A stretch of DNA of 64,000 nucleotides from a virus (taxonomy: Duplodnaviria > Caudoviricetes): the IMG/VR virus record IMGVR_UViG_3300002092_001784, positions 96,001 through 160,000 of that record, one strand, 5' to 3'. The translations under genes and the position numbers were made by a program. Below are positions 5,670 to 53,426 of the stretch, in pieces (the first letter of the stretch is position 1; each line of letters begins with the position of its first letter). The notes under the pieces are model-generated. The model saw nothing but the letters and a program-made list of their open reading frames with translations. It was not told the DNA's origin and made no database searches.

Positions 5670-5772
5670 AATAAATTGAAAAAAGTACAAAATTAATTTG
5701 GAAATGTGAAAAATTATTCGTATCTTTGTATAAATTAAAAAACTATATACTTATATATATATTAAAACATAC

Positions 5773-6257: not shown

Positions 6258-7131
6258 AAGAACTGAACAAAGCTTCGGCAGAGTGAAAGTTCAAGACGGC
6301 CGCCTATGGTCGTTAAATAAACTACGAAAGTAGGATAAAGTGAACCGGTGTGGTTTATACGGTTTGCGGTTTGATAATCGAAAGGTTGTTGAGCTCGAGT
6401 AGGCAATGGAAATATCATCGCTCCTTTAGTATTGAGGGTAACACTGTAAAGATGGTGGAGAGATGACTGGGCTAAGTAGATAGTCCGGTTGAGTTCGGAA
6501 GAACAATAAGAATAATTTCAAGGATTTATGCAAGAAATGGGAACTTAATCCCTTCTCACTATTGCGTGATTCAATATGAGAGTTGACTTAAAACCGAAAG
6601 GTAATGTAAGTATGGTGAATTGCCAGAATGTACAGGTGGTGCTGTTATTCCTTTCACTACAAAGTTTTACCAAAAGCTTTGAATACTTCAGTCCACTTAA
6701 AATGTGGTGTTAGGGATAACACATTGGGTAGTTTAGTATTCCGTTGTTCAAAAGGTAACGGAGCTGGTTGGCGAACCACTACCCGAATCCATCTACAAAC
6801 CAAAACTATTTGAAATATGGTTCAAAACTAAAAATCAAAAAGCAAAAGTGTTCGTCAGTTGCAAGCGAAAGGTGCGTACTTAGTAATGGGTTGTCCATTG
6901 CCATATGTAATAGCCAAAATCATATGATTCTAAGGAAAGACTTCTAACACCGCAAGTGCTAATCAGTTCGGCAGAATTGATGAGGTGTAATAGTTGGAGA
7001 GTAGTTTGTAACTCAAAGAGTGGTTCACTTAAATAACCCGCATTGAATCAATACCAGCCAAAAGCAGGTGGATAATAAGGGAAACAATAATCCTTATAAA
7101 GATGGTTCACATAAGCAAGTAATCTCATTGC
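6258..7131 (+). ncRNA. Probable GOLLD RNA (giant ornate ncRNA)
   Basis: About 870 nt, no real ORF, dense GNRA/UUCG hairpins, own promoter plus boxA, tRNA context. The 3' segments agcaaaagtgt, gcgaaaggtgcgtac, gagagtag..gtaactca, caaaagcaggtggata, gggaaac..taatcc..taaaga and gtaatctca match my recollection of the GOLLD 3' domain. Confidence 0.7.
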
Positions 7132-7143
7132 AAATAACAAAAC

Positions 7144-7212
7144 GCGGAAATCGTATAATGTAGTATCACAGGCCTCCAGCCTGTTGGTTGTGGACGATTC
7201 CACATTTCCGCT
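7144..7212 (+). tRNA. Atypical tRNA-Gly(TCC)-like
   Basis: gcggaaa/tttccgc, U73, acagg-cctccag-cctgt (C33), degenerate T-loop acgatt. Confidence 0.5.
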
Positions 7213-7251
7213 CACTTAGTTATGGTTCTATTAATTAAAAACCAAAAATTT

Positions 7252-7319
7252 GCGGTTTAAGTGTTACGGTAGCACAGGAACATTCCAGTTTCAAGATGGG
7301 TTCGACTCCCAAAACCGCT
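7252..7319 (+). tRNA. Atypical tRNA-Gly(TCC)-like
   Basis: gcggttt/aaaccgc, good D-arm and TTCGA loop; 6-nt anticodon loop attcca and 4-bp T-stem. Confidence 0.5.
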
Positions 7320-7355
7320 CTAAGATAAATTCAGTTCAGTAATGAACTAAAAATC

Positions 7356-7458
7356 TACGGTAGAAGTGGGTGATTGGGCGGGATACCTTAAATAAGATTC
7401 GCAACTTTCAAGTCCATTCGCTTTCACAATAGTAAATGTGAATATTGTGACTACCGTA
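7356..7458 (+). ncRNA. Three-way-junction structured RNA
   Basis: tacggtag/ctaccgta enclosing aagtgggtg/cattcgctt and tcacaata/tattgtga. Confidence 0.4.
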
Positions 7459-7496
7459 AAAATATTAAAAAAATAAAAACATAATACTTATATACA

Positions 7497-7622
7497 ATGA
7501 AAACCTTAGCATTACATACAAATTTGTTTAATTTACCACTCTATAAAAGCTGGTCGAATATTTGTGTGTTTAATTCAAGCATTCGCAAGAGTTCAGTTGA
7601 GGGAAGTAATTTATTTACGTGA
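7497..7622 (+). CDS. Putative leader peptide (41 aa, MKTLALHTNLFNLPLYKSWSNICVFNSSIRKSSVEGSNLFT)
   Basis: Short ORF right after the TACTTATA motif and just upstream of a terminator preceding a tRNA array. Confidence 0.55.
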   Translation: MKTLALHTNLFNLPLYKSWSNICVFNSSIRKSSVEGSNLFT

Positions 7623-7659
7623 CGTATTAGAAGATAAAAGAATACAAACTAACTAAATA

Positions 7660-7696
7660 GACCCTCTACTGATAAACAAAGTAGGGGGTTTTTTCG
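7660..7696 (+). terminator. Intrinsic terminator (attenuator 1)
   Basis: accctctact/agtagggggt stem plus U-tract. Confidence 0.8.
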
Positions 7697-7709
7697 TTTG
7701 TAACAATTT

Positions 7710-7780
7710 GTTTCTATGGTGAAATGGTATCACGACGGACTGTTAATCCGTGATTTATGGTTCGAGTCCATATGGGAACG
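7710..7780 (+). tRNA. tRNA-Asn(GTT)
   Basis: acgga-ctgttaa-tccgt; full cloverleaf. Confidence 0.9.
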
Positions 7781-7819
7781 CTAGAACAAAAGGTTCATTG
7801 AAATATTTGAGTTTGATTT

Positions 7820-7894
7820 GGGCATGTAGTTTAGCTGGTTGAAAATGTCTGGTTTACACCCAGAAGACCGTAGGTTCAAATCCTACCTTGCCTA
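7820..7894 (+). tRNA. tRNA-Val(TAC)
   Basis: tctgg-tttacac-ccaga. Confidence 0.9.
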
Positions 7895-7904
7895 CATATA
7901 ATAT

Positions 7905-7971
7905 GCCGACGAACAGGAATAAGCCGGGTCTGTAAAACCCTAGCTCGAGGTTTCGATCACCTCCGGCGGCA
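7905..7971 (+). tRNA. Minimal tRNA-Tyr(GTA)-like (reduced D-arm, no long variable arm)
   Basis: gccgacg/cggcggc, gggt-ctgtaaa-accc, gaggt-ttcgatc-acctc, A73. Confidence 0.6.
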
Positions 7972-7976
7972 CAATT

Positions 7977-8049
7977 GGAGAAGAAGCTAACTTGGTAGAA
8001 GCACTGGTCTGAAAAATCAGAGGAATTGGATCGAAACCAATCTTTTCCA
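7977..8049 (+). tRNA. tRNA-Phe(GAA)
   Basis: ctggt-ctgaaaa-atcag. Confidence 0.9.
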
Positions 8050-8076
8050 CAATCCAAAAAGGATTATATTAAAAAT

Positions 8077-8150
8077 GACTTCGTGGCCAAACTGGATAAG
8101 GCTTCTCACTTTTAATGAGAAAATTGTGAGTTCAAATCTCACCGGAGTCA
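8077..8150 (+). tRNA. tRNA-Lys(TTT)
   Basis: tctca-cttttaa-tgaga. Confidence 0.9.
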
Positions 8151-8249
8151 CTAGGGAACGTGGGTGGTAATCTGACCGGATATAGGATTGGATGGGAAAC
8201 AGACAGGGAGCCTGCTGAAATTCTGTAAAGGGTTGGGAATTTATGTTAT

Positions 8250-8322
8250 GGTTCGGTAGACCAACGGTAGAGTCAGTAGTTTCAAAAGCTATAAAGTGTG
8301 GGTTCGAATCCCACTCGGACTA
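8250..8322 (+). tRNA. tRNA with Leu(CAA) anticodon, short variable arm
   Basis: ggttcgg/tcggact; gtagt-ttcaaaa-gctat; A73. Confidence 0.8.
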
Positions 8323-8338
8323 CATTGGAATACATATT

Positions 8339-8405
8339 CGAACGAAGTGTATTAGCAAAGACGAGAAGTCAATCATTCGTTTGTGACAGGTGTGGAAAGA
8401 CATAC
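8339..8405 (+). ncRNA. GAAAGA-loop small RNA, copy 2
   Basis: cgaacgaa/ttcgtttg then tgacag-gtgtg-gaaaga-catac. Confidence 0.4.
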
Positions 8406-8410
8406 GATAT

Positions 8411-8485
8411 GGTCCGGTAGCCCAATTTGGTAGAGGCAGCAGACTTAAACCCTGCATAGTGAGAGTTCAAATCTCTTTCGGACTA
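8411..8485 (+). tRNA. tRNA with Leu(TAA) anticodon, short variable arm
   Basis: ggtccgg/tcggact; gcag..cttaaac..ctgc; A73. Confidence 0.8.
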
Positions 8486-8495
8486 CAATTATTAA

Positions 8496-8569
8496 CGGCG
8501 AATCGTCTAATTTGGTTAGGACGCAAATCTGATAAGTTTGTAATCCCAGTTCGAAGCTGGGCTCGCCGA
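8496..8569 (+). tRNA. tRNA-Ile(GAT)
   Basis: caaat-ctgataa-gtttg. Confidence 0.88.
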
Positions 8570-8586
8570 CAAACAATAAAAAAAAT

Positions 8587-8678
8587 GGAAGTATAAATCC
8601 CAGATGGACTAAGGGAGCCGGTCTTGAAAACCGTAGGTCGCTAAACACGGCGTGTAAGTTCGAGTCTTACTACTTCCG
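8587..8678 (+). tRNA. tRNA-Ser(TGA)
   Basis: cggt-cttgaaa-accg, long variable arm, G73. Confidence 0.88.
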
Positions 8679-8781
8679 CAGCATGTGTGATATATCACTC
8701 ATTAATGATTAATTTGATTAAAATAAACAACATTATGAAAAAACTATTTGACAAGTATTAGGTTAATTAAAACCTAGTATT

Positions 8782-9003
8782 ATGAAACCGTACAAAAAAT
8801 CAATGATTGCTAAAACTACAACTTGTAGAAAAGAATACAAAGTAGTTACTAACCGTTTTTATAAAGACCCGTATTGGGATGAAGGGCTATACTTTTATCC
8901 AACAATACGAAAGGGTTATAAAAACCCTAACAGACAGATTATGAGTTATCAGATTAGAATGTATCGAACTTGGAAACATAATCGGAAAACTCAATGGAAA
9001 TAA
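8782..9003 (+). CDS. Small basic hypothetical protein inside the tRNA array
   Basis: 73 aa, ends RTWKHNRKTQWK. Confidence 0.55.
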   Translation: MKPYKKSMIAKTTTCRKEYKVVTNRFYKDPYWDEGLYFYPTIRKGYKNPNRQIMSYQIRMYRTWKHNRKTQWK

Positions 9004-9010
9004 ACAATAC

Positions 9011-9092
9011 ACATTCGCTCATTGGCGTGACCAGCCGGCTCCAACCCGGTAATGCGTAAGCGTGGTTGAGGGTTCGAATCCCTACGAATGTG
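9011..9092 (+). tRNA. tRNA-Sec/allo-tRNA-like RNA with CCA anticodon
   Basis: (c)acattcg/cgaatgt(g); D hairpin tcat-tggc-gtga; gccgg-ctccaac-ccggt; long V-arm atgc-gtaa-gcgt; aggg-ttcgaat-ccct. Confidence 0.6.
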
Positions 9093-9098
9093 CACTAT

Positions 9099-9171
9099 AC
9101 GTAAGTAGCTCAATTGGTAGAGTAGTGGTCTCCAAAACCACCGGTTGGGAGTTCGAGTCTCTCCTTACGTG
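9099..9171 (+). tRNA. tRNA-Trp(CCA)
   Basis: gtggt-ctccaaa-accac; G73. Confidence 0.92.
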
Positions 9172-9174
9172 CAT

Positions 9175-9251
9175 GGCCTTATGGTGTAATTGAATAACAC
9201 GCTTCGCTACGGACGAAGAGAGTGAGGGTTTGAATCCTTCTAGGGTCACCA
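9175..9251 (+). tRNA. tRNA-Arg(ACG)
   Basis: cttcg-ctacgga-cgaag; encoded CCA. Confidence 0.9.
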
Positions 9252-11838: not shown

Positions 11839-11909
11839 GTCACACAAATCAAATGGATTGGTGCTTGTCTGCAAAATAAGATTAGTGAGTTCGATTCTCA
11901 CGTGTGACT
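11839..11909 (+). tRNA. tRNA-Cys(GCA)
   Basis: cttgt-ctgcaaa-ataag; U73. Confidence 0.85.
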
Positions 11910-11914
11910 CATAT

Positions 11915-11988
11915 GGTGTCTATGGTGTTAATGGTAGCATGACAGATTGTGGTTCTGTGGGTGAGAGGTTCGAATCCTCCTAGACACA
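11915..11988 (+). tRNA. tRNA-His(GTG)
   Basis: G-1, acaga-ttgtggt-tctgt; discriminator reads A rather than C. Confidence 0.85.
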
Positions 11989-11999
11989 CTTAAAAAAAT

Positions 12000-12048
12000 T
12001 ATAAGGCTAGAACCTTATAATCGCATATTATAAGGCTAGAACCTTATA
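12000..12048 (+). repeat. Direct repeat of a 20-bp hairpin-forming unit (tataaggctagaaccttata x2)
   Basis: Copies at 12000-12019 and 12029-12048. Confidence 0.85.
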
Positions 12049-12055
12049 TTTTTAT

Positions 12056-12141
12056 GGAGAGTGAAGTAGCAAGGTCTGTTACCACCGCCTGCTAAGCGGA
12101 TGGCTCTGAAAATGGGTACGTTTCGAATACGTCGTTCTCCG
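12056..12141 (+). tRNA. tRNA-Ser(GCT)
   Basis: ccgc-ctgctaa-gcgg, long V-arm, G73. Confidence 0.85.
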
Positions 12142-12154
12142 CATTTATTAACTC

Positions 12155-12228
12155 GGTTCGGTAGACCAATTGGTAGAGTCAACGGCTTTAGACACCGTCC
12201 AGTGTGGGTTCGAATCCCACTCGAACTA
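12155..12228 (+). tRNA. tRNA with Leu(TAG) anticodon, short variable arm
   Basis: ggttcgg/tcgaact; acgg..tttagac..ccgt; body nearly identical to 8250. Confidence 0.8.
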
Positions 12229-12241
12229 CAAAAAGATATTT

Positions 12242-12895
12242 ATGAAATTAGTTTTAGAAAAAGGACAAAGGTTATACTTCACCTCGGATTCACACTACGG
12301 TCATCACAACATCTGTTCTGCAACTACAAAATGGGTAGATGCAGAAGATATGACTCGGGATTTCGAATCGTTGGACAGTATGAATGATATGTTGGTAGAC
12401 AATATCAATAAGTTGGTTGGTGAAAATGATATTCTATTTCATTTAGGTGACTGGTCTTTTGGTGGATTTGATAACATCAGAAAATTCAGAGAGAGGATTG
12501 CTTGTAAGAACATTCATTTGGTACTTGGTAACCATGACCACCATATCGCTAATAACAAAGATGGTGTTCAATCTCTTTTCAGTTCGGTAAACAATTATGT
12601 GTTTCTGGATGTGAGAGTACCGATTAACAAAAACCATAATGACAGACACGCATTTGTATTGTGTCACTTTCCGATTGCAAGTTGGGATAGTATGAACACA
12701 GGAGTACTGCATTTGCATGGACACACTCACCTACCTCCGCATTTAAGAATTGCCGCAGGTAGGGCAATGGACATTGGTATGGATGGGAACGGATTAGAAC
12801 CGATTGAATACACAGAGGTTGTAAACCTATTGAAAGATAGACCAATCCGAAAGTTGAGTTTACCGACGGACCACCATGAAAAAAGATTGATTTAA
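12242..12895 (+). CDS. Calcineurin-like metallophosphoesterase
   Basis: FTSDSHYGH, HLGD, LGNHD, HGHTH motifs; start moved to ATG 12242 because the longer ORF overlaps a tRNA. Confidence 0.88.
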   Translation: MKLVLEKGQRLYFTSDSHYGHHNICSATTKWVDAEDMTRDFESLDSMNDMLVDNINKLVGENDILFHLGDWSFGGFDNIRKFRERIACKNIHLVLGNHDHHIANNKDGVQSLFSSVNNYVFLDVRVPINKNHNDRHAFVLCHFPIASWDSMNTGVLHLHGHTHLPPHLRIAAGRAMDIGMDGNGLEPIEYTEVVNLLKDRPIRKLSLPTDHHEKRLI

Positions 12896-13570: not shown

Positions 13571-14131
13571 ATGAAAATTTTATTCCTTGACCACGATGGA
13601 GTAATTTGTTTGTCCCCACAGTGGGGAGGTCGTTTCAAAAACAAAGAAGGACTTGATTTGATGTTTGACAGATTTGATGATAAAGCAGTAAAGGTACTGA
13701 ATAAAATCATTGAAGAAACCGATTGCGAAATTGTGGTATCATCCGATTGGAGATTGTTCGCTACATTAGAGCAAATGCAAGAATTGTATCTTATCCGTGG
13801 TATCTTAAAATCACCGATTGATTATACACCACTAACCGCAGATACTGATGTAATACCTGATGGGTTTACATTTGATAGGTGGGAATGGGAAGTACAGCAA
13901 AGTAGGTGTTTTGAGATTAAAACTTGGTTAAAACGCCATACTGAAATTACGAATTGGGTGGCAGTTGATGATATGAATATGAGTTCAGATTATAAGTTTG
14001 AATACGATTCACATAAGCAGTTGTGGGGGTTGGATAATTTTGTAAGGACACCGATTTCAAATCAAGGAATTAAACAAACCGGAATTAAGGATAAAATTGT
14101 TAAAATACTTAATCAAACTCAAAATATGTAA
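13571..14131 (+). CDS. HAD-superfamily phosphatase (Swiss-army-knife RNA-repair-like HAD_SAK_2)
   Basis: ILFLDHDGVI, IVVSSDWR, WVAVDD. Confidence 0.75.
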   Translation: MKILFLDHDGVICLSPQWGGRFKNKEGLDLMFDRFDDKAVKVLNKIIEETDCEIVVSSDWRLFATLEQMQELYLIRGILKSPIDYTPLTADTDVIPDGFTFDRWEWEVQQSRCFEIKTWLKRHTEITNWVAVDDMNMSSDYKFEYDSHKQLWGLDNFVRTPISNQGIKQTGIKDKIVKILNQTQNM

Positions 14132-14193: not shown

Positions 14194-15276
14194 ATGAAAA
14201 AACCCAAAGTTCTGTTTATTCTTAAAAAAAGACAAGATTACGGTGAACCACACCCAGCGCATATTGGGTTGAGTACTGGTTTATATAATTCGGCAACATT
14301 TGTTAACGATATGCTAAATGATGCAGGAATCCATTCACATATTGAAGTGGTAGTTGACAATAATGATATAGATAGAGAAGTTACTAAACACAAACCAACT
14401 CATGTTATTATTGAGGCGTTGTGGGTAGTACCATCTAAATTTGATGTGTTGTGTAAATTACACCCAACTGTAAATTGGATTATAAGGCTTCATAGTGAAC
14501 TTCCATTTTTAGCAAATGAAGGAAACGCTATGGATTGGATTGGATGTTATATACAGCATAGAAACGTACATATTGCAGTAAATGCCCCACGTACTATGAA
14601 TGATATTAAACATTATCTTCGTATCAAGATGGGCTGGTTAAATAATATGGTGAATAAGAAAGTAATTTATTTACCAAATTTTTATCCTCAGAAGTACAAA
14701 GTAAAGAAATTCAATGTGAATGATGATACTATTGATATTTCTTGTTTTGGGGCAGTTAGACCGTTTAAGAATCATCTTAATCAGGCTATGGCAGCAATTA
14801 AGTTTGCTGACAAGATTGGTAAGAAGTTGAGATTTCATATCAATACCGGTCGTTTTGAAATGAAAGGTGTATCAGTCTATACTAATTTGGTTGGATTGTT
14901 TGATCACCTATCAGATAGAGGACATAAGTTAATTAACCATGAGTGGACACACCATGATGAATTTTTGAAAATCTGTTCTCAAATGGATATTGCAATGCAA
15001 TGTTCATTTTCTGAAACTTTTAATATAGTTGCCGCAGATGAGATTTCTCAGGGAGTACCATTGGTAGCATCTAAAGAGATAGTTTGGTCGAGTTCTTTGT
15101 TTAATGCAAATCCAACAGATACGAAGTCTATTACCAATGCATTGATGCTGACATATAAGATGCCGTGTTTGAATGTAAAATGGAATAAACTTGGTTTAAC
15201 AACTTATACAAATAAGACTCGGAAAATATGGGTTGATTATTTCAAAAAACAAAACCCATTCATTCTTAACAAATAA
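14194..15276 (+). CDS. GT-B fold glycosyltransferase (GT4-like)
   Basis: ISCFGAVRPFKN, MQCSFSETFNIVAADEISQGVPLV. Confidence 0.75.
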   Translation: MKKPKVLFILKKRQDYGEPHPAHIGLSTGLYNSATFVNDMLNDAGIHSHIEVVVDNNDIDREVTKHKPTHVIIEALWVVPSKFDVLCKLHPTVNWIIRLHSELPFLANEGNAMDWIGCYIQHRNVHIAVNAPRTMNDIKHYLRIKMGWLNNMVNKKVIYLPNFYPQKYKVKKFNVNDDTIDISCFGAVRPFKNHLNQAMAAIKFADKIGKKLRFHINTGRFEMKGVSVYTNLVGLFDHLSDRGHKLINHEWTHHDEFLKICSQMDIAMQCSFSETFNIVAADEISQGVPLVASKEIVWSSSLFNANPTDTKSITNALMLTYKMPCLNVKWNKLGLTTYTNKTRKIWVDYFKKQNPFILNK

Positions 15277-15312
15277 AATAGTGATTTTTTAATTTTTGAA
15301 TACTTATATACG

Positions 15313-15417
15313 ATGAAGAACACAATAAACACATACCCGCAACCTAGTAGACCAACAACCGTTGGGACAGGAAGAGGTACGCAAAATTACATAGTTCGGA
15401 ATCGCAAATTAGATTAA
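15313..15417 (+). CDS. Putative leader peptide (34 aa, MKNTINTYPQPSRPTTVGTGRGTQNYIVRNRKLD)
   Basis: Short ORF after TACTTATA and upstream of a terminator, boxA and a tRNA array. Confidence 0.55.
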   Translation: MKNTINTYPQPSRPTTVGTGRGTQNYIVRNRKLD

Positions 15418-15440
15418 ATAAAAAACATTCATATAATTTG

Positions 15441-15480
15441 AAAAATCCGAGCTAAACATAAAGAGTTCGGATTTTTTATT
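15441..15480 (+). terminator. Intrinsic terminator (attenuator 2), followed by boxA-like GTTCTTTGG at 15500
   Basis: aaaaatccgagct/agttcggattttt plus U-tract. Confidence 0.8.
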
Positions 15481-15580
15481 TTAAGATATTAACACCATCG
15501 TTCTTTGGCATAACGGAGAAAAATAATTATGGAACAAGGCATTATTATCGATATAGATATAATGGTGAATAGTGTTATAT

Positions 15581-15653
15581 GGCCCTATGATGTAATGGAT
15601 TAGCATCAGTCCCTTCTAAGGATTTCGTTAGCGTTCGAATCGCTATGGGGCTA
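15581..15653 (+). tRNA. tRNA-Arg(TCT)
   Basis: agtcc-cttctaa-ggatt. Confidence 0.9.
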
Positions 15654-15688
15654 CTAAGTTATTAAGTGTAAACTAAAAAACAGAAATT

Positions 15689-16120
15689 ATGAAATTATTA
15701 AAAATAGTATTGATATGTATATTACTATCGCTAATACCTGTTCAGTTTAAGGCTGATATTGCAGATTTGGTTGTGTTTGAAAATATATTAAAGAAAGAAC
15801 AGAAACCTCGTATTGTAACAGTAACAACATATACTGTGAATCGTAAAAAGTATACCGCTAGTGGATTTGAGGTAACTCCGGATAATCCGGCAGCAGAACG
15901 AATTATCGCAATTAGTAGGGATTTGAAGAAACGATTTGAATATGGTGAGCGTGTACTGGTTACTGGTATTGGAGAATATAGTGGGGTTTATATTATAAGG
16001 GATTTGATGGGTAAAAAGTGGAAGAACCGAATAGATATTCTAATTGATCCGGAAGATGAACATACAAAATTGTTTAATGCAAGATTGTATCGAATGGATG
16101 CTGAAGATTCAGAAAAGTAA
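15689..16120 (+). CDS. Exported 3D-domain (double-psi beta-barrel, lytic-transglycosylase-like) protein
   Basis: Signal peptide; TVTTY...TASG...IAISRD...RDLMG...RIDIL. Confidence 0.7.
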   Translation: MKLLKIVLICILLSLIPVQFKADIADLVVFENILKKEQKPRIVTVTTYTVNRKKYTASGFEVTPDNPAAERIIAISRDLKKRFEYGERVLVTGIGEYSGVYIIRDLMGKKWKNRIDILIDPEDEHTKLFNARLYRMDAEDSEK

Positions 16121-16128
16121 AAGTATAT

Positions 16129-16201
16129 AGCGAGTGAGGTGTAATGATTTTGCATACCGCATTTGGGATGCGGGGGAGGAGTTTGATTCTCACACTTGCT
16201 A
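16129..16201 (+). tRNA. tRNA-Pro(TGG)
   Basis: ccgca-tttggga-tgcgg; weak T-stem. Confidence 0.8.
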
Positions 16202-16229
16202 CAAAAAAATAAAAACGAAGTAGTTATAT

Positions 16230-16589
16230 ATGGAAAAACTAACATATAAAACCGATGGGGACATGAGTGAATACTTCGAAAGATTATCCGATATAATCAA
16301 AAAAGGGAAAACACAGGAAGAAGTGGTATCAATGATTCTTAATGTGGTAAACGCCAAGAAAAAGTTGGTGAAGTATAAAGGTGGCAAATGTGAATTATGC
16401 GGATACAATCGAAGTATAAATGCATTACATTTTCATACTCGTAACAAAGATGGTAAAGATTATATCATAAGTGGCAAAACTTTATCAATGGATACTCTTA
16501 AAAAGGATGTGGATAAATATGTATTGGTTTGTTCAAATTGCAGAGTAGAAATAAATGAAGGAATTGTTGATATTAGTTTGGAAAGTTGA
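16230..16589 (+). CDS. HNH-like Zn-finger protein, catalytic residues apparently degenerate
   Basis: YKGGKCELCGY...LHFHTRN...LVCSNCRVEIN. Confidence 0.6.
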   Translation: MEKLTYKTDGDMSEYFERLSDIIKKGKTQEEVVSMILNVVNAKKKLVKYKGGKCELCGYNRSINALHFHTRNKDGKDYIISGKTLSMDTLKKDVDKYVLVCSNCRVEINEGIVDISLES

Positions 16590-16623
16590 AATATTTTTCG
16601 TATCTTTGTAAAATTAAATAAAC

Positions 16624-16708
16624 GCCTCTATCGTATAGTGGTCGATTACAGCTGATTTGTAATCAGCATTTCGAAAGAAACTCGTCGGTTCGAATCCGGC
16701 TAGGGGCT
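16624..16708 (+). tRNA. tRNA-Thr(TGT) with long variable arm
   Basis: gctga-tttgtaa-tcagc; V-arm tttc-gaaa-gaaa. Confidence 0.85.
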
Positions 16709-16784
16709 CGGGGTAACTCATATTGAGAACCCGTTCCGATAACATACCCAGAGTGGTTACTTAAACGAAGTGTTATCAAATATT

Positions 16785-16860
16785 GCGAATGTAGCTCAAT
16801 TGGTAGAGTACGGCGTTGCCAACGCTGAGGTTGTGAGATCGTAGCTCATCATTCGCTCCA
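16785..16860 (+). tRNA. tRNA-Gly(GCC)
   Basis: cggcg-ttgccaa-cgctg; encoded CCA. Confidence 0.92.
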
Positions 16861-16973
16861 TAAGGGTTTCCCGCTTTAAGGTGAAGGACACGCGGGCGGA
16901 GACGTTCAGAATTAGTCATTAAACAATTCAAAACCTTAAGTCTATGATGGGAGGGCCCTACCCATTAAATTTT

Positions 16974-17046
16974 GCGGAAGTAGCTCAATTGGTAGAGCGC
17001 CTGCCTTCCAAGCAGGGGGTTGAGGTATCGTACACCTTCTTCCGCT
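16974..17046 (+). tRNA. tRNA-Gly(TCC)
   Basis: cctgc-cttccaa-gcagg; U73. Confidence 0.92.
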
Positions 17047-17102
17047 CCGGTCACTTTTTTGTAAGTTAGAGATGAAAGTTCGATTTTATTATATTTATAT
17101 GT

Positions 17103-17789
17103 ATGAAACGATGCAAAAAATGTAATATAGAATTTGAACCTCAACGAGGATTGTTGAATTATTGCTCATTAGCATGTAGGAACAGTAGAAATTGGACGGT
17201 TGCTGATAAATTAAAAAAATCAATTAGTGCTAAAAATAGTGCTAAAGTTATTGAATCAAACTCTAAATTATCTGATAAATTAAAAGAATATTGGTCGGAT
17301 GAAACTAAAAGATTGGCTCAATCATATCGTATAAAAAATATATGGACTGATGAAATGAGAAAAATTTATTCATCCAATCGAATGGGAGTTAAGCATTCAG
17401 CAGAAACAATAGAAAAAATAAGAACTATTCAAAAACAAAGATTAAAGGATAACCCAATGCTGCATCCTAATAGATTATGTGCTGGTATTAATGAAAGTTA
17501 TCCCGAAAGAATGATTAGGGAATATTTTGAAAATATTGGATATGTAAATGGTATTGATTTTATTCAGCAATTTGAATATAAAGGTTATTATGTAGATTTT
17601 TATATACCAAAAACTAATATTTGTATAGAAGTTGATGGTGAATATTGGCATGATAGTTCAAATCAAAAAGAAATTGATAGAGAAAATGAAATAAAGAAAA
17701 CATATAAATTATATAGATTATCCGCAAAACAAGTATTGAAAAAAGAATACGAAGATTTATTAAAAAATATATTTTCAGAATTGAATTAA
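17103..17789 (+). mobile_element. Free-standing homing-type endonuclease (N-terminal Zn ribbon, NUMOD3, C-terminal DUF559/Vsr-like nuclease)
   Basis: CKKC..CSLAC; KHSAETIEKIR; ESYPE...YYVDFY..NICIEVDGEYWH; inserted between tRNA genes. Confidence 0.75.
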
Positions 17790-17886
17790 TATAAAAACTC
17801 AAGTACCCGTACAGCTAGAGTAGGGTTAAATTAGATACGATTTCTCAGTTTCAATAACACGCTGGAAGTAGAATGCTTGAGAATAT

Positions 17887-17957
17887 TGCCCGATGGTGTA
17901 ACGGTAGCACCCATCACTTTGACTGATGTAGTTTAGGTTCGAATCCTAATCGGGCGA
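17887..17957 (+). tRNA. tRNA-Gln(TTG)
   Basis: catca-ctttgac-tgatg. Confidence 0.9.
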
Positions 17958-17970
17958 CTAAAATAGTTTT

Positions 17971-51500: not shown

Positions 51501-52145
51501 ATTTTGGAGAAGAAACTTTTATCCATGTTTACAAAGTGTGGCTAATGACTTATATAAAAAAGGATTGATTGAAGCGGGTGATTACGCAATTGAAATTGAT
51601 TGGTAGTATAATACACAAAACAAATAAGATTTATGAATAACTTTAATTACTGTTTGTACCAACTTGGATTCATTAAGAAGGACGATGAAAACGTTGCACT
51701 CGTCAAAGTAAAAGGTTGTATCGAAGGTGAAACGAATTGGATGTCTTTGAATAAAGAATCAGCAAAAACACTGATTGAATGGTTAACCGAAAATTATTTG
51801 GGTGATACCGAATAAAACATCATCAAAAATTTGGAAATCTGATATATATTTATTATATTTGTACTTAATATTAAATACGTTATGGAAACGGTAGAATTAC
51901 AAAAAGAAATTGAACAGTTGAAATGGGATATTCAACAACATGATTTTTATTATGAGTATTCCGATGATAGTAGAGCATACCGAAACGGTGGAAATGAAGA
52001 ACGAAACATCATACAATCGATTCGTAGTATCTTAACCAAATCACCGGAAGTTGAAGAATCTTTATTACAAGAATGTGTAACCATTAAAACTGATTCAAAA
52101 CTTCAAAACCAAATCAAAGCGTTCTTTTCAAACGCTAAGAGGTAA
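48533..52145 (+). other. About 12 small early-type hypothetical CDSs under repeated promoters (class P at 49107-49162, 49965-50020, 51057-51112)
   Basis: Packed ORFs; 49179-49673 carries YHSSWDWLMPVVEKI. Confidence 0.6.
49069..49094 (+). terminator. Intrinsic terminator
   Basis: aaaggagtt-taag-aactccttt plus T-run. Confidence 0.8.
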
Positions 52146-52156
52146 GTTATTTTAAT

Positions 52157-52228
52157 GGCGAGTTCGTCTAACGGTTAGGACAAATGGTTTTCATCCATTA
52201 AATAGGGTTTCGATTACCCTACTCGCTA
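52157..52228 (+). tRNA. tRNA-Glu(TTC)
   Basis: aatgg-ttttcat-ccatt. Confidence 0.88.
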
Positions 52229-52250
52229 CGATAAACCAAACACGCTAGGT

Positions 52251-52291
52251 GACGACCACAGGTGATATTGTTGGCAGCTCGGAAAGACGGC
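52251..52291 (+). ncRNA. GAAAGA-loop small RNA, copy 3
   Basis: cagctcggaaagacggc identical to 5049-5065. Confidence 0.45.
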
Positions 52292-52297
52292 AAATAT

Positions 52298-52371
52298 GGT
52301 GCGTTAGGCAAATTGGCTAAGCCGTCAGCCCTTCAAGCTGAAGATTTCGGGATCGTACCCCGAACGCACTA
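52298..52371 (+). tRNA. Second tRNA with TTC (Glu) anticodon, C33 variant
   Basis: ggtgcgt/acgcact; tcagc-ccttcaa-gctga. Confidence 0.7.
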
Positions 52372-52377
52372 CACTTA

Positions 52378-52661
52378 GATAGTTTCATAATTTAAGGTCA
52401 AGCCACATTATGTTGAGTGGAGTTTACTTCATTTGACGCCAGATGAAATTATCGAGGTAACGAAGGATTAGAGGTGGCTGTGACTACTTCGTTACCAGCG
52501 GGATAAATAATGGAAGTTAGTTGACAAACGGCTTAAAGAAAATGTTGACAGATACCGCCTGTATGGTAACCGGCCGCTACCTTAAAGGCTTGAATTGACA
52601 ACCATTGTTTTGAAAAATCTATGAGTAATCATAGTATCTTTGGGGGTAATTAACCAAAGAT
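52378..52661 (+). ncRNA. Structured ncRNA region (unassigned)
   Basis: gatagtttcat/atgaaattatc, ggtaacgaag/cttcgttacc, aaataatgg/ccattgttt, atctttgg/ccaaagat. Confidence 0.45.
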
Positions 52662-52680
52662 TAGAAGGTTCGAAACTTCA

Positions 52681-52801
52681 AAATGGTTTAGTGTATTGGG
52701 CACGGGTCAAACAGACTATTATAAAATAATATAGAACTGAAATAGCTGTGAGATAAATAATGTTGATTCCAGCATTGGGTTCGAATCCCAATAACCGTTT
52801 T
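52681..52801 (+). ncRNA. tRNA-like RNA, 8-bp acceptor, about 70-nt core
   Basis: aaatggtt/aaccgttt; D gtg-tattggg-cac; T ttggg-ttcgaat-cccaa. Confidence 0.55.
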
Positions 52802-52807
52802 TAATGT

Positions 52808-52878
52808 AAAGTTATTAGTGTGAGGTCACACATCGGTATATAACCACTGATGCAAGGTTCGATTCCTTCATAACTTTC
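52808..52878 (+). ncRNA. tRNA-sized tRNA-like RNA with ambiguous anticodon arm
   Basis: aaagttat/ataacttt; D gtgt-gaggtc-acac; T aagg-ttcgatt-cctt. Confidence 0.55.
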
Positions 52879-52918
52879 TATACGAAAATTGTTCTTTGTA
52901 TATATTTATATTTAATAT

Positions 52919-52994
52919 GGTCTTAGGGGCTGCATGGAGTGGCCGTCTGCCTGTCACGCAGAATATCAGGAGGGATCGTTACCCTTTGGGACCG
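52919..52994 (+). tRNA. tRNA-Asp(GTC)
   Basis: tctgc-ctgtcac-gcaga; G73. Confidence 0.88.
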
Positions 52995-53094
52995 CAAAAG
53001 AAATGGGATTGAAATAGGAAAACGGCAATTTTCCAATAGTAAATTTGGTTTCACTACTAAAAGGTAAGTTTGCCGACAAACCAAAAAGTAGTTT

Positions 53095-53164
53095 TTCTCA
53101 TTAGTTCAATTGGAAGAACCCCGGTAGGAACTGGGTGATGTAGGTTCGAGTCCTACATGGGAAT
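53095..53164 (+). ncRNA. tRNA-like RNA with 4-nt loop in place of the anticodon loop
   Basis: ttctcat/atgggaa; D gttc-aattggaa-gaac; cccggt-agga-actggg; gtagg-ttcgagt-cctac. Confidence 0.65.
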
Positions 53165-53277
53165 CATAACATAGGTGGGTAGGTAGGATGCACAGAATGT
53201 ACTGTTAAACTAATGTGTAGGGTATCGCTTGTATGATAATAACAGTAGAGGTGTACAGTAACCTATGTTTTTTATTT

Positions 53278-53352
53278 GGGGTCGTAGATTAATTGGCTAA
53301 ATCACCTGATTTGCATTCAGGAGACTTGAGGGTTCGAAGCCCTTCGATTCCA
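53278..53352 (+). tRNA. tRNA-Ala(TGC)
   Basis: cctga-tttgcat-tcagg; G3:U70. Confidence 0.92.
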
Positions 53353-53426
53353 CGAATACTAACACATTGGCTTTGTGTTGAATTTATCGGATAACATGCC
53401 GTTTACATTATTATGTAATAAAAGAA

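Follow-up and report, generated by a model that had tools for sequence, protein, structure and literature searches.

In the enterobacterial amino-acid operon attenuators trpL, hisL, leuL, thrL, and pheL, the decoding speed of regulatory codons positions the ribosome on the leader. The leaders of ilvGMEDA and ilvBN (Ile, Leu, Val) and of thr (Thr, Ile) sense two or three amino acids belonging to one pathway, and the pheST attenuator controls a synthetase through Phe codons only. A T-box functions without an ORF, by direct binding of uncharged tRNA, and lambda Q modifies the polymerase in a system with no leader ORF, alternative RNA pairing, or codon content. Why phages carry tRNA genes and how these genes are expressed is a fifty-year-old question, for which codon compensation and escape from tRNA-cleaving defences are the current ideas. 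A search of the full-text literature found no description of attenuation controlling phage tRNA genes.

The DNA analysed here (the window, 64,000 nt) comprises bases 96001-160000 of a 266,153-bp phage record in IMG/VR (G000), and DNA of this phage is found in freshwater metagenomes. The phage has a G+C content of 33% and carries nearly all of its genes on the + strand. Shine-Dalgarno sites are present at only 4-11 of its 266 ORFs, the upstream regions being A-rich, and TAnnTTTG boxes precede genes in its relatives. Both features of this jumbo phage suggest a Bacteroidota-type host. Judged by computation only, positions 7484-7700 of the window probably form a multivalent leader-peptide attenuator, which would control transcription of the tRNA block from 7710 onward (Table 1). 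The cassette would belong to a family present in a large group of freshwater jumbo phages with Bacteroidota-like expression signals.

Table 1. Features of the two candidate attenuator cassettes and the tRNA genes that follow them (window coordinates).
Feature	Position	Strand	Details or basis
Promoter-like or 5'-UTR-like 11-mer ATACTTATATA	7484..7494	+	C variant of the ATATTTATATA element that recurs in the genome
Leader ORF, 41 codons	7497..7622	+	Codons 2-28 are the proposed sensing zone
Putative region 1 (anti-antiterminator partner of region 2)	7504..7510	+	Duplex energy
Region 2, antiterminator strand	7594..7604	+	Near copy of the terminator 3' arm; ends 15 nt before the stop codon
Region 3, terminator 5' arm	7660..7670	+	Fold and pairing
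Region 4, terminator 3' arm (7680-7690) and T tract	7680..7700	+	Fold
Putatively regulated tRNA block	7710..9251	+	Asn, Val, Tyr, Phe, Lys, Leu(CAA), Leu(UAA), Ile, Ser(UGA), Trp-like, Trp, Arg(ACG)
Further tRNAs Cys, His, Leu(UAG)	11839..12229	+	Precede the next leader
Second cassette	15300..15473	+	11-mer 15300-15310; 34-codon ORF 15313-15417; region 2 15392-15401; terminator 15444-15473
tRNA array 2	15581..17958	+	Arg(UCU), Pro(UGG), Thr, Gly, Gly, Gln

The proposed attenuator shares with the trpL and hisL type a leader ORF, 2:3 and 3:4 pairings with a putative 1:2 pairing among four regions, a terminator located just before the genes, and regulatory codons whose decoding speed would position the ribosome. 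It differs in that the targets are tRNAs rather than enzymes, in that the leader has no run of a single codon and samples about a dozen codon families, and in that region 2 is part of the ORF itself, 10-20 nt upstream of the stop codon, rather than beyond it. An untranslated phage leader is further predicted to give read-through instead of super-attenuation, and the phage, without Shine-Dalgarno sites and with Bacteroidota-type signals, has no sequence or Rfam relation to the enterobacterial leaders. The closest working likeness is to the multivalent ilv leaders, where a single leader senses several aminoacyl-tRNAs; unlike the ilv and thr leaders, the phage leader samples 10-13 tRNA species, and the set corresponds to the gene content of the following operon. 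The pheST attenuator is similar in applying leader-peptide attenuation and decoding-speed feedback to a gene of the translation apparatus, though its target is not tRNA genes. With the T-box the phage cassette would have in common the sensing of tRNA status and a terminator/antiterminator switch, but its signal is frame-specific and there is no T-box match. The arrangement of a promoter, a terminated RNA of about 200 nt, and a long operon reached only by read-through resembles that of lambda PR', 6S RNA, and tR'.

The sequence-only reading had described a motif, TACTTATA (7485-7492), a short ORF, an intrinsic terminator, and tRNA genes in this order, and each element was confirmed where it had been placed. 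The terminator has a 9-nt loop between its arms (7660-7670 and 7680-7690) and is followed by T6. It has a folding energy of -17.1 kcal/mol (z = -4.4), with 0 of 200 shuffles folding equally well, and the stem ends 20 nt upstream of tRNA-Asn; a simple terminator scan skipped this hairpin (7660-7690) owing to its loop limit of 8 nt. The claimed 8-pair antiterminator was also found, 7595-7603 pairing with 7662-7670 through 8 pairs with one internal mismatch, and the region 2:3 duplex (-11.0 kcal/mol) was stronger than in dinucleotide shuffles of the leader (p = 0.018). The putative region 1:2 duplex, between 7504-7510 and 7596-7602, has an energy of -9.9 kcal/mol and p = 0.096 when taken alone, and 2:3 beats 1:2 in a simple fold model; a substitution within region 1 in the close relative L032 changes a G.U pair to A-U. 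The frame of ORF 7497-7622 stays open in just 2.4% of shuffles, though this test is partly circular, as the leader set was picked by ORF presence, and the combined value is biased. Each of the leader-1 statistics is modest by itself (p = 0.02-0.04), and the case rests on the recurrence of the design in relatives. The lack of a Shine-Dalgarno site at the ORF is normal here, because genes of this phage are without such sites; a chance-ORF reading founded on this lack was dropped, as the sites are missing throughout the phage and relatives carry the same cassette. Rfam leader and riboswitch families (Trp_leader, His_leader, T-box, and others) generated no match at E up to 10 in 7130-7720, where the best score was for the trpB motif (27 bits versus a gathering score of 59).

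As an 8-mer, TACTTATA is not enriched (8 matches versus 5.2 expected), and it forms part of the 11-mer ATA[T/C]TTATATA. About 25 copies of the 11-mer are present on the + strand of the 266-kb genome, where they are intergenic and typically have a gene start 14-35 nt downstream. Within the window there are three copies of the C variant (5747, 7484, and 15300), each of them ahead of tRNAs or a leader; the copy at 5747 is 15 nt upstream of tRNA-Met, and the 12-mer at leader 1 is identical to that before the second leader at 15300. The (T)ATATTTATATA form, which often directly follows a terminator (e.g. at 17468, 61743, 65807, and 240973 in G000) and resembles the Bacteroidota -7 box with A replacing G, is probably the main promoter type of the phage. 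The leader-1 ATG is only 2 nt past the 11-mer, versus 14-35 nt at normal genes. A canonical TAnnTTTG box was not found upstream of leader 1, and neither the terminator scan nor the Rfam scan placed a terminator between GOLLD RNA (6724-7131) and leader 1. As the 11-mer ends just 2 nt before the ATG, the leader-1 mRNA may be leaderless or may be produced by transcription from upstream.

GenBank phages contained no near match to this region, and a distant search generated GOLLD-like matches in Acinetobacter phages only. Relatives were gathered via a 360-residue protein (14194-15276) located within the tRNA region of many jumbo phages, which has no Pfam domain but more than 4000 homologues. Among cultured phages, the nearest homologues come from Ralstonia phages RSL1 and RsoM2USA (42-45%), no close cultured relative being found. 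The resulting set comprised L032 (70% protein identity), 80 IMG/VR loci at 58-64%, and the later check loci L113-L118. The leader region of L032 is 91% identical in nucleotide sequence, which exceeds the values for the adjoining tRNA-Asn and the neighbouring proteins (70% in amino acids). L032 is the only close homologue of leader 1, and its leader ORF has the same length. The 9 substitutions in the ORF fall 4/2/3 by codon position and cause 6 amino-acid changes, with no third-position bias. Regions 2-4 are invariant, and no covariation is therefore available for the leader-1 copy. This pairwise comparison is therefore of little help in either direction.

Conservation in related phages, proposed as a check when the ORF was first noticed, was seen at two levels: ORF length and region 2 are kept in L032, and the design and pairing recur in diverged relatives. 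A short ORF with a copy of the terminator 3' arm near its 3' end, then a terminator, then tRNAs were found in this order in about 14 diverged relatives. The cassette is present in L032, L033, L034/35, L036, L044, L048-type loci, L055, L056, L066, and L083, and again in L113, L116, and L117 among the later check loci. Leader ORFs at the distant loci have 24-36 codons, start near a TAnnTTTG-type promoter, and end 20-28 nt before the terminator; 13 copies have a gap of 20-28 nt between stop codon and terminator, compared with 37 nt in leader 1. When terminators were taken without pre-selection, an ORF of 20-50 codons ending 15-45 nt upstream accompanied 16 of the 21 unique terminators with a tRNA within 200 nt, versus 16 of 230 others (Fisher p = 1e-12). 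In gene order, leader 1 occupies the position of the leaders termed family B, upstream of the marker gene for the 360-residue protein, and both leader 1 and family B precede an array with Ile, Phe, Lys, Trp, Arg(ACG), Cys, and His tRNAs. Leader 2, that of the second cassette, matches the family A position just 3' of the marker gene; its L032 counterpart carries an in-frame insertion of 3 nt, along with several synonymous third-position changes in a conserved core. Gene callers had annotated products of 30-35 residues at the leader position in relatives.

In tblastn, the two leader peptides generated no hits in the distant loci beyond L032. Neither the 240-residue neighbour gene nor two exact-word queries, drawn from the conserved block and region 2, matched in IMG/VR, and the 21 IMG/VR matches to the exact terminator pattern were all unrelated terminators. 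A pattern combining region 2 with the 5' arm generated 44 matches in metagenome contigs, none homologous and about as many as expected by chance. A fourth family of ORFs (36-49 codons, with a ..YWSA..GNDR.. core) precedes AACCCTAAG-type terminators near tRNA arrays at L060 1051, L087 11426, and, on the - strand, L081 and L095. This family shows a terminator and partial antiterminator pairing, but its codons have no match to the arrays, and it was excluded from the claim.

The alternative pairing was assessed across the family by the best duplex between the terminator 5' arm and the leader, which beats dinucleotide shuffles over 21 copies (Fisher p = 4e-10), whereas the mirror control, which scores complementarity to the 3' arm, does not (p = 0.27). 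The antiterminator pairing was also significant in the later check loci (p = 6e-4). In 11 of 14 independent copies, the best pairing segment ends 4-20 nt upstream of the stop codon (p = 1e-6), 7-20 nt being the usual distance. The antiterminator co-varies with the terminator arm, as TCCCGA/TCGGGA in L036 and TTCCGAG/CTCGGAA in L055. In family A, the GTTCGGA copy is in different reading frames in different phages, which places the constraint on the RNA rather than the peptide. Pairing of codons 2-7 with region 2 (region 1:2) reached p = 1.3e-4 over 12 leaders with visible covariation. The trp/his-type geometry recognised at leader 1 is thus not a one-off, as it recurs with significant and co-varying complementarity.

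The tRNA genes downstream of leader 1 had been counted as 13 or more; the first block holds 12 genes up to 9251, and three more are located at 11839-12229. Nine genes of the block were called by ARAGORN, Tyr and the second Trp-like gene were called at a relaxed threshold, and Ser(UGA) is at 8587-8677. The Trp-like gene (9011-9093), with a Trp anticodon (CCA) and an unusual long-arm shape, adjoins the normal tRNA-Trp; it generated a weak Rfam match of the tRNA-Sec type, and the relaxed threshold was the only one at which ARAGORN called it. Cys, His, and Leu(UAG) were counted with array 1, co-transcription being assumed.

Leader codons were scored as matched when readable, under standard wobble rules, by tRNAs of the following array. 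In genomes with two leaders, each leader fits its own array rather than the other, with two-by-two counts (own versus other array) of 23, 3 and 8, 12 in this genome (p = 0.001), 25, 4 and 4, 26 in L055 (p = 1e-8), 20, 3 and 1, 21 in L036 (p = 1e-8), and 25, 4 and 6, 21 in L113 (p = 2e-6); pooled counts for G000, L055, and L036 were 68, 10 and 13, 59 (p = 2e-18). The match is frame-specific, with for example 28 of 32 codons matched in frame versus 12 and 8 in the remaining frames, and it withstands dinucleotide shuffling of each ORF (combined p = 2e-17). Matched codons are denser upstream of region 2 (65% versus 43%). Glu and Asp codons occur in those family B leaders that have tRNA-Glu/Asp arrays and are absent from the L036 leader, whose array has neither tRNA. 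For leader 1 alone, 27 of 40 codons are matched versus 22.0 +/- 2.6 in shuffles (p = 0.038; 22 and 21 in the other frames), and much of this match reflects A+T richness, which yields many Asn, Lys, Phe, Leu, and Ile codons whichever frame is read. From the absence of a run of one amino acid, the leader had been supposed to sense general tRNA or translation failure. The codons instead mirror, in frame, the tRNAs encoded downstream, and that supposition was abandoned.

These elements suggest the following working. Transcription would begin at or just before the ATG, or come in from the upstream non-coding RNA unit, and a ribosome would translate the 41-codon ORF as the polymerase proceeds. Most of the first 28 or so codons would be decoded by tRNAs of the array that follows (Asn, Leu, Phe, Lys, Ile, Val, Tyr, Trp, Cys, His, Arg, and Ser). 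If decoding is fast, the ribosome would be over region 2 as region 3 emerges; the 3:4 terminator would then form, and transcription would stop at the T tract to leave an RNA of about 200 nt. If decoding of any one of these codons is slow, the cognate tRNAs being scarce, uncharged, or cleaved, the ribosome would lag and leave region 2 free to pair with region 3, and the polymerase would continue into the tRNA genes. Absence of the ribosome would, according to the fold model, also lead to read-through. Newly made tRNAs would speed decoding and close the loop. The cassette at 15300-15473 would act likewise on the Arg/Pro/Thr/Gly/Gln array.

In the fold model, nascent RNA extending to 7672 formed the 2:3 pairing by default and with a ribosome on early codons, and lost this pairing only on masking of 7593-7623; the full-length leader-1 RNA favoured the terminator by 5.7 kcal/mol. 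The sequence-only reading had held that full translation occludes the antiterminator. The model is in line with this logic, 2:3 forming unless 7593-7623 is covered, but a ribosome parked at the stop codon failed to mask region 2 in both leader 1 and family B. Termination would therefore need a particular lag between ribosome and polymerase, which is an assumption.

Other explanations were weighed against the multivalent attenuator. An ordinary, partly leaky terminator could end a short RNA that starts at the 7484 promoter or in the upstream unit of GOLLD, tRNA-like, and non-coding RNA, with the tRNAs made by constitutive read-through and with the 41-codon frame and the 8-pair complementarity due to chance. 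Leader 1 taken alone is compatible with this, given that its statistics reach only p = 0.02-0.04 each, that its comparison with L032 shows no coding signature, that the ATG abuts the promoter-like motif, and that no terminator separates GOLLD RNA from the leader. We nevertheless consider it unlikely, as chance leaves unexplained the recurrence of ORF, 3'-arm copy, and terminator before tRNA arrays in many diverged phages, the frame-specific codon match, and the conservation of the leader in L032 above that of the adjoining tRNA-Asn or neighbouring proteins. The frame-specific match, the conserved open frame, and the co-varying 3'-arm copy are equally unaccounted for if read-through is set by a protein or a modification of the polymerase (a Q- or N-type antiterminator that loads close to the promoter, or a boxA/Nus complex) and the ORF has no role. 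Such control has the lambda PR'-tR' geometry in its favour (a promoter, an RNA of about 150-200 nt, a terminator, and a long untranslated operon), as well as boxA-like words after the terminator in many copies and a conserved AACATA-like word about 15 nt past the ATG in differing reading frames. However, the boxA-like word is after the terminator, not before it, and the AACATA word is partly accounted for as region 1, and we regard this explanation as quite improbable.

The supported alternative pairings and the high nucleotide conservation of the leader would also suit a translation-independent RNA switch, in which the leader RNA binds a ligand or a tRNA in the manner of a T-box and flips between 2:3 and 3:4. 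Against this, Rfam families including the T-box have no match, the codon match is found solely in the ORF's own frame, and conservation extends to the length of the ORF and the distance between stop codon and terminator, which makes such a switch very unlikely. It is just as hard to credit that the small ORFs encode functional micro-proteins that the terminator only insulates from the tRNA genes. The synonymous third-position changes and in-frame insertion seen on comparing leader 2 with L032, and the annotated products of 30-35 residues in relatives argue for micro-proteins, but the peptides diverge past tblastn detection between lineages while RNA pairing and codon repertoire are kept, and their composition follows the downstream tRNA set, for which a structural peptide has no reason.

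Beyond the present locus, it is moderately likely that multivalent attenuators form a widespread family through which phage tRNA arrays tune themselves, each array being transcribed only when ribosomes are slow on the codons that its own tRNAs serve, and the leader repertoire co-evolving with array content. If the multivalent attenuator is real, the phage gauges the decoding of specific codons and supplies tRNAs on demand, sensing host tRNA shortage or cleavage (e.g. by anticodon nucleases) and answering with the matching tRNA set, and the codon list of the leader is a direct readout of the tRNAs that limit infection. Classical attenuation would gain tRNA genes as a new target class and would reach hosts that lack Shine-Dalgarno sites, in which few studies have addressed how transcription and translation are coupled. 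Short and modular, the cassettes lend themselves to reporter assays.

Several other elements surround the two cassettes. GOLLD RNA generated a full-model match to Rfam RF02032 at 6724-7131 (275 bits, E = 4e-78). In lake metatranscriptomes, contigs from this phage and its relatives span only 6315-7102, with none over the leader; GOLLD RNA is therefore present in RNA libraries. Between GOLLD RNA and the leader is a tRNA-like element (7251-7320) for which ARAGORN reports a 2-base 'anticodon' and which is conserved in L032 (2584-2653). The block at 7352-7460 is 100% identical to L032 despite the 70% protein identity and has no Rfam match; it adopts a closed fold of three helices (closing helix ACGGTAG/CTACCGT, -31 kcal/mol). 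The block probably represents an independent small structured RNA immediately upstream of the leader.

The boxA-like word, (GAT/GTT)CTTTGA(A/C)A, occurs as GTTCTTTGGCA at 15500-15510, between the attenuator terminator and the first tRNA, and also after the terminators of L033, L036, L044, L048, L055, and L066; after leader 1 (7695-7706) there is only a weak likeness. A possible role of the word is the loading of a Nus-type complex onto the untranslated array. The third tRNA cluster of the window (52157-53353) has no such cassette; an 87-codon gene abuts the cluster with no terminator. This Glu/Asp-rich ORF (51882-52145) ends 12 nt before tRNA-Glu, tRNA-Glu, and tRNA-Asp, which may be a coincidence or another kind of coupling. 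RNA-repair-type genes are located within the tRNA region (12170-12895 and 13571-14131) and in a relative (L117 163-795). They include a phosphoesterase, a HAD domain of 'Swiss Army Knife' RNA repair proteins, and, in a relative, an RNA ligase, and fit a conflict over tRNA cleavage.
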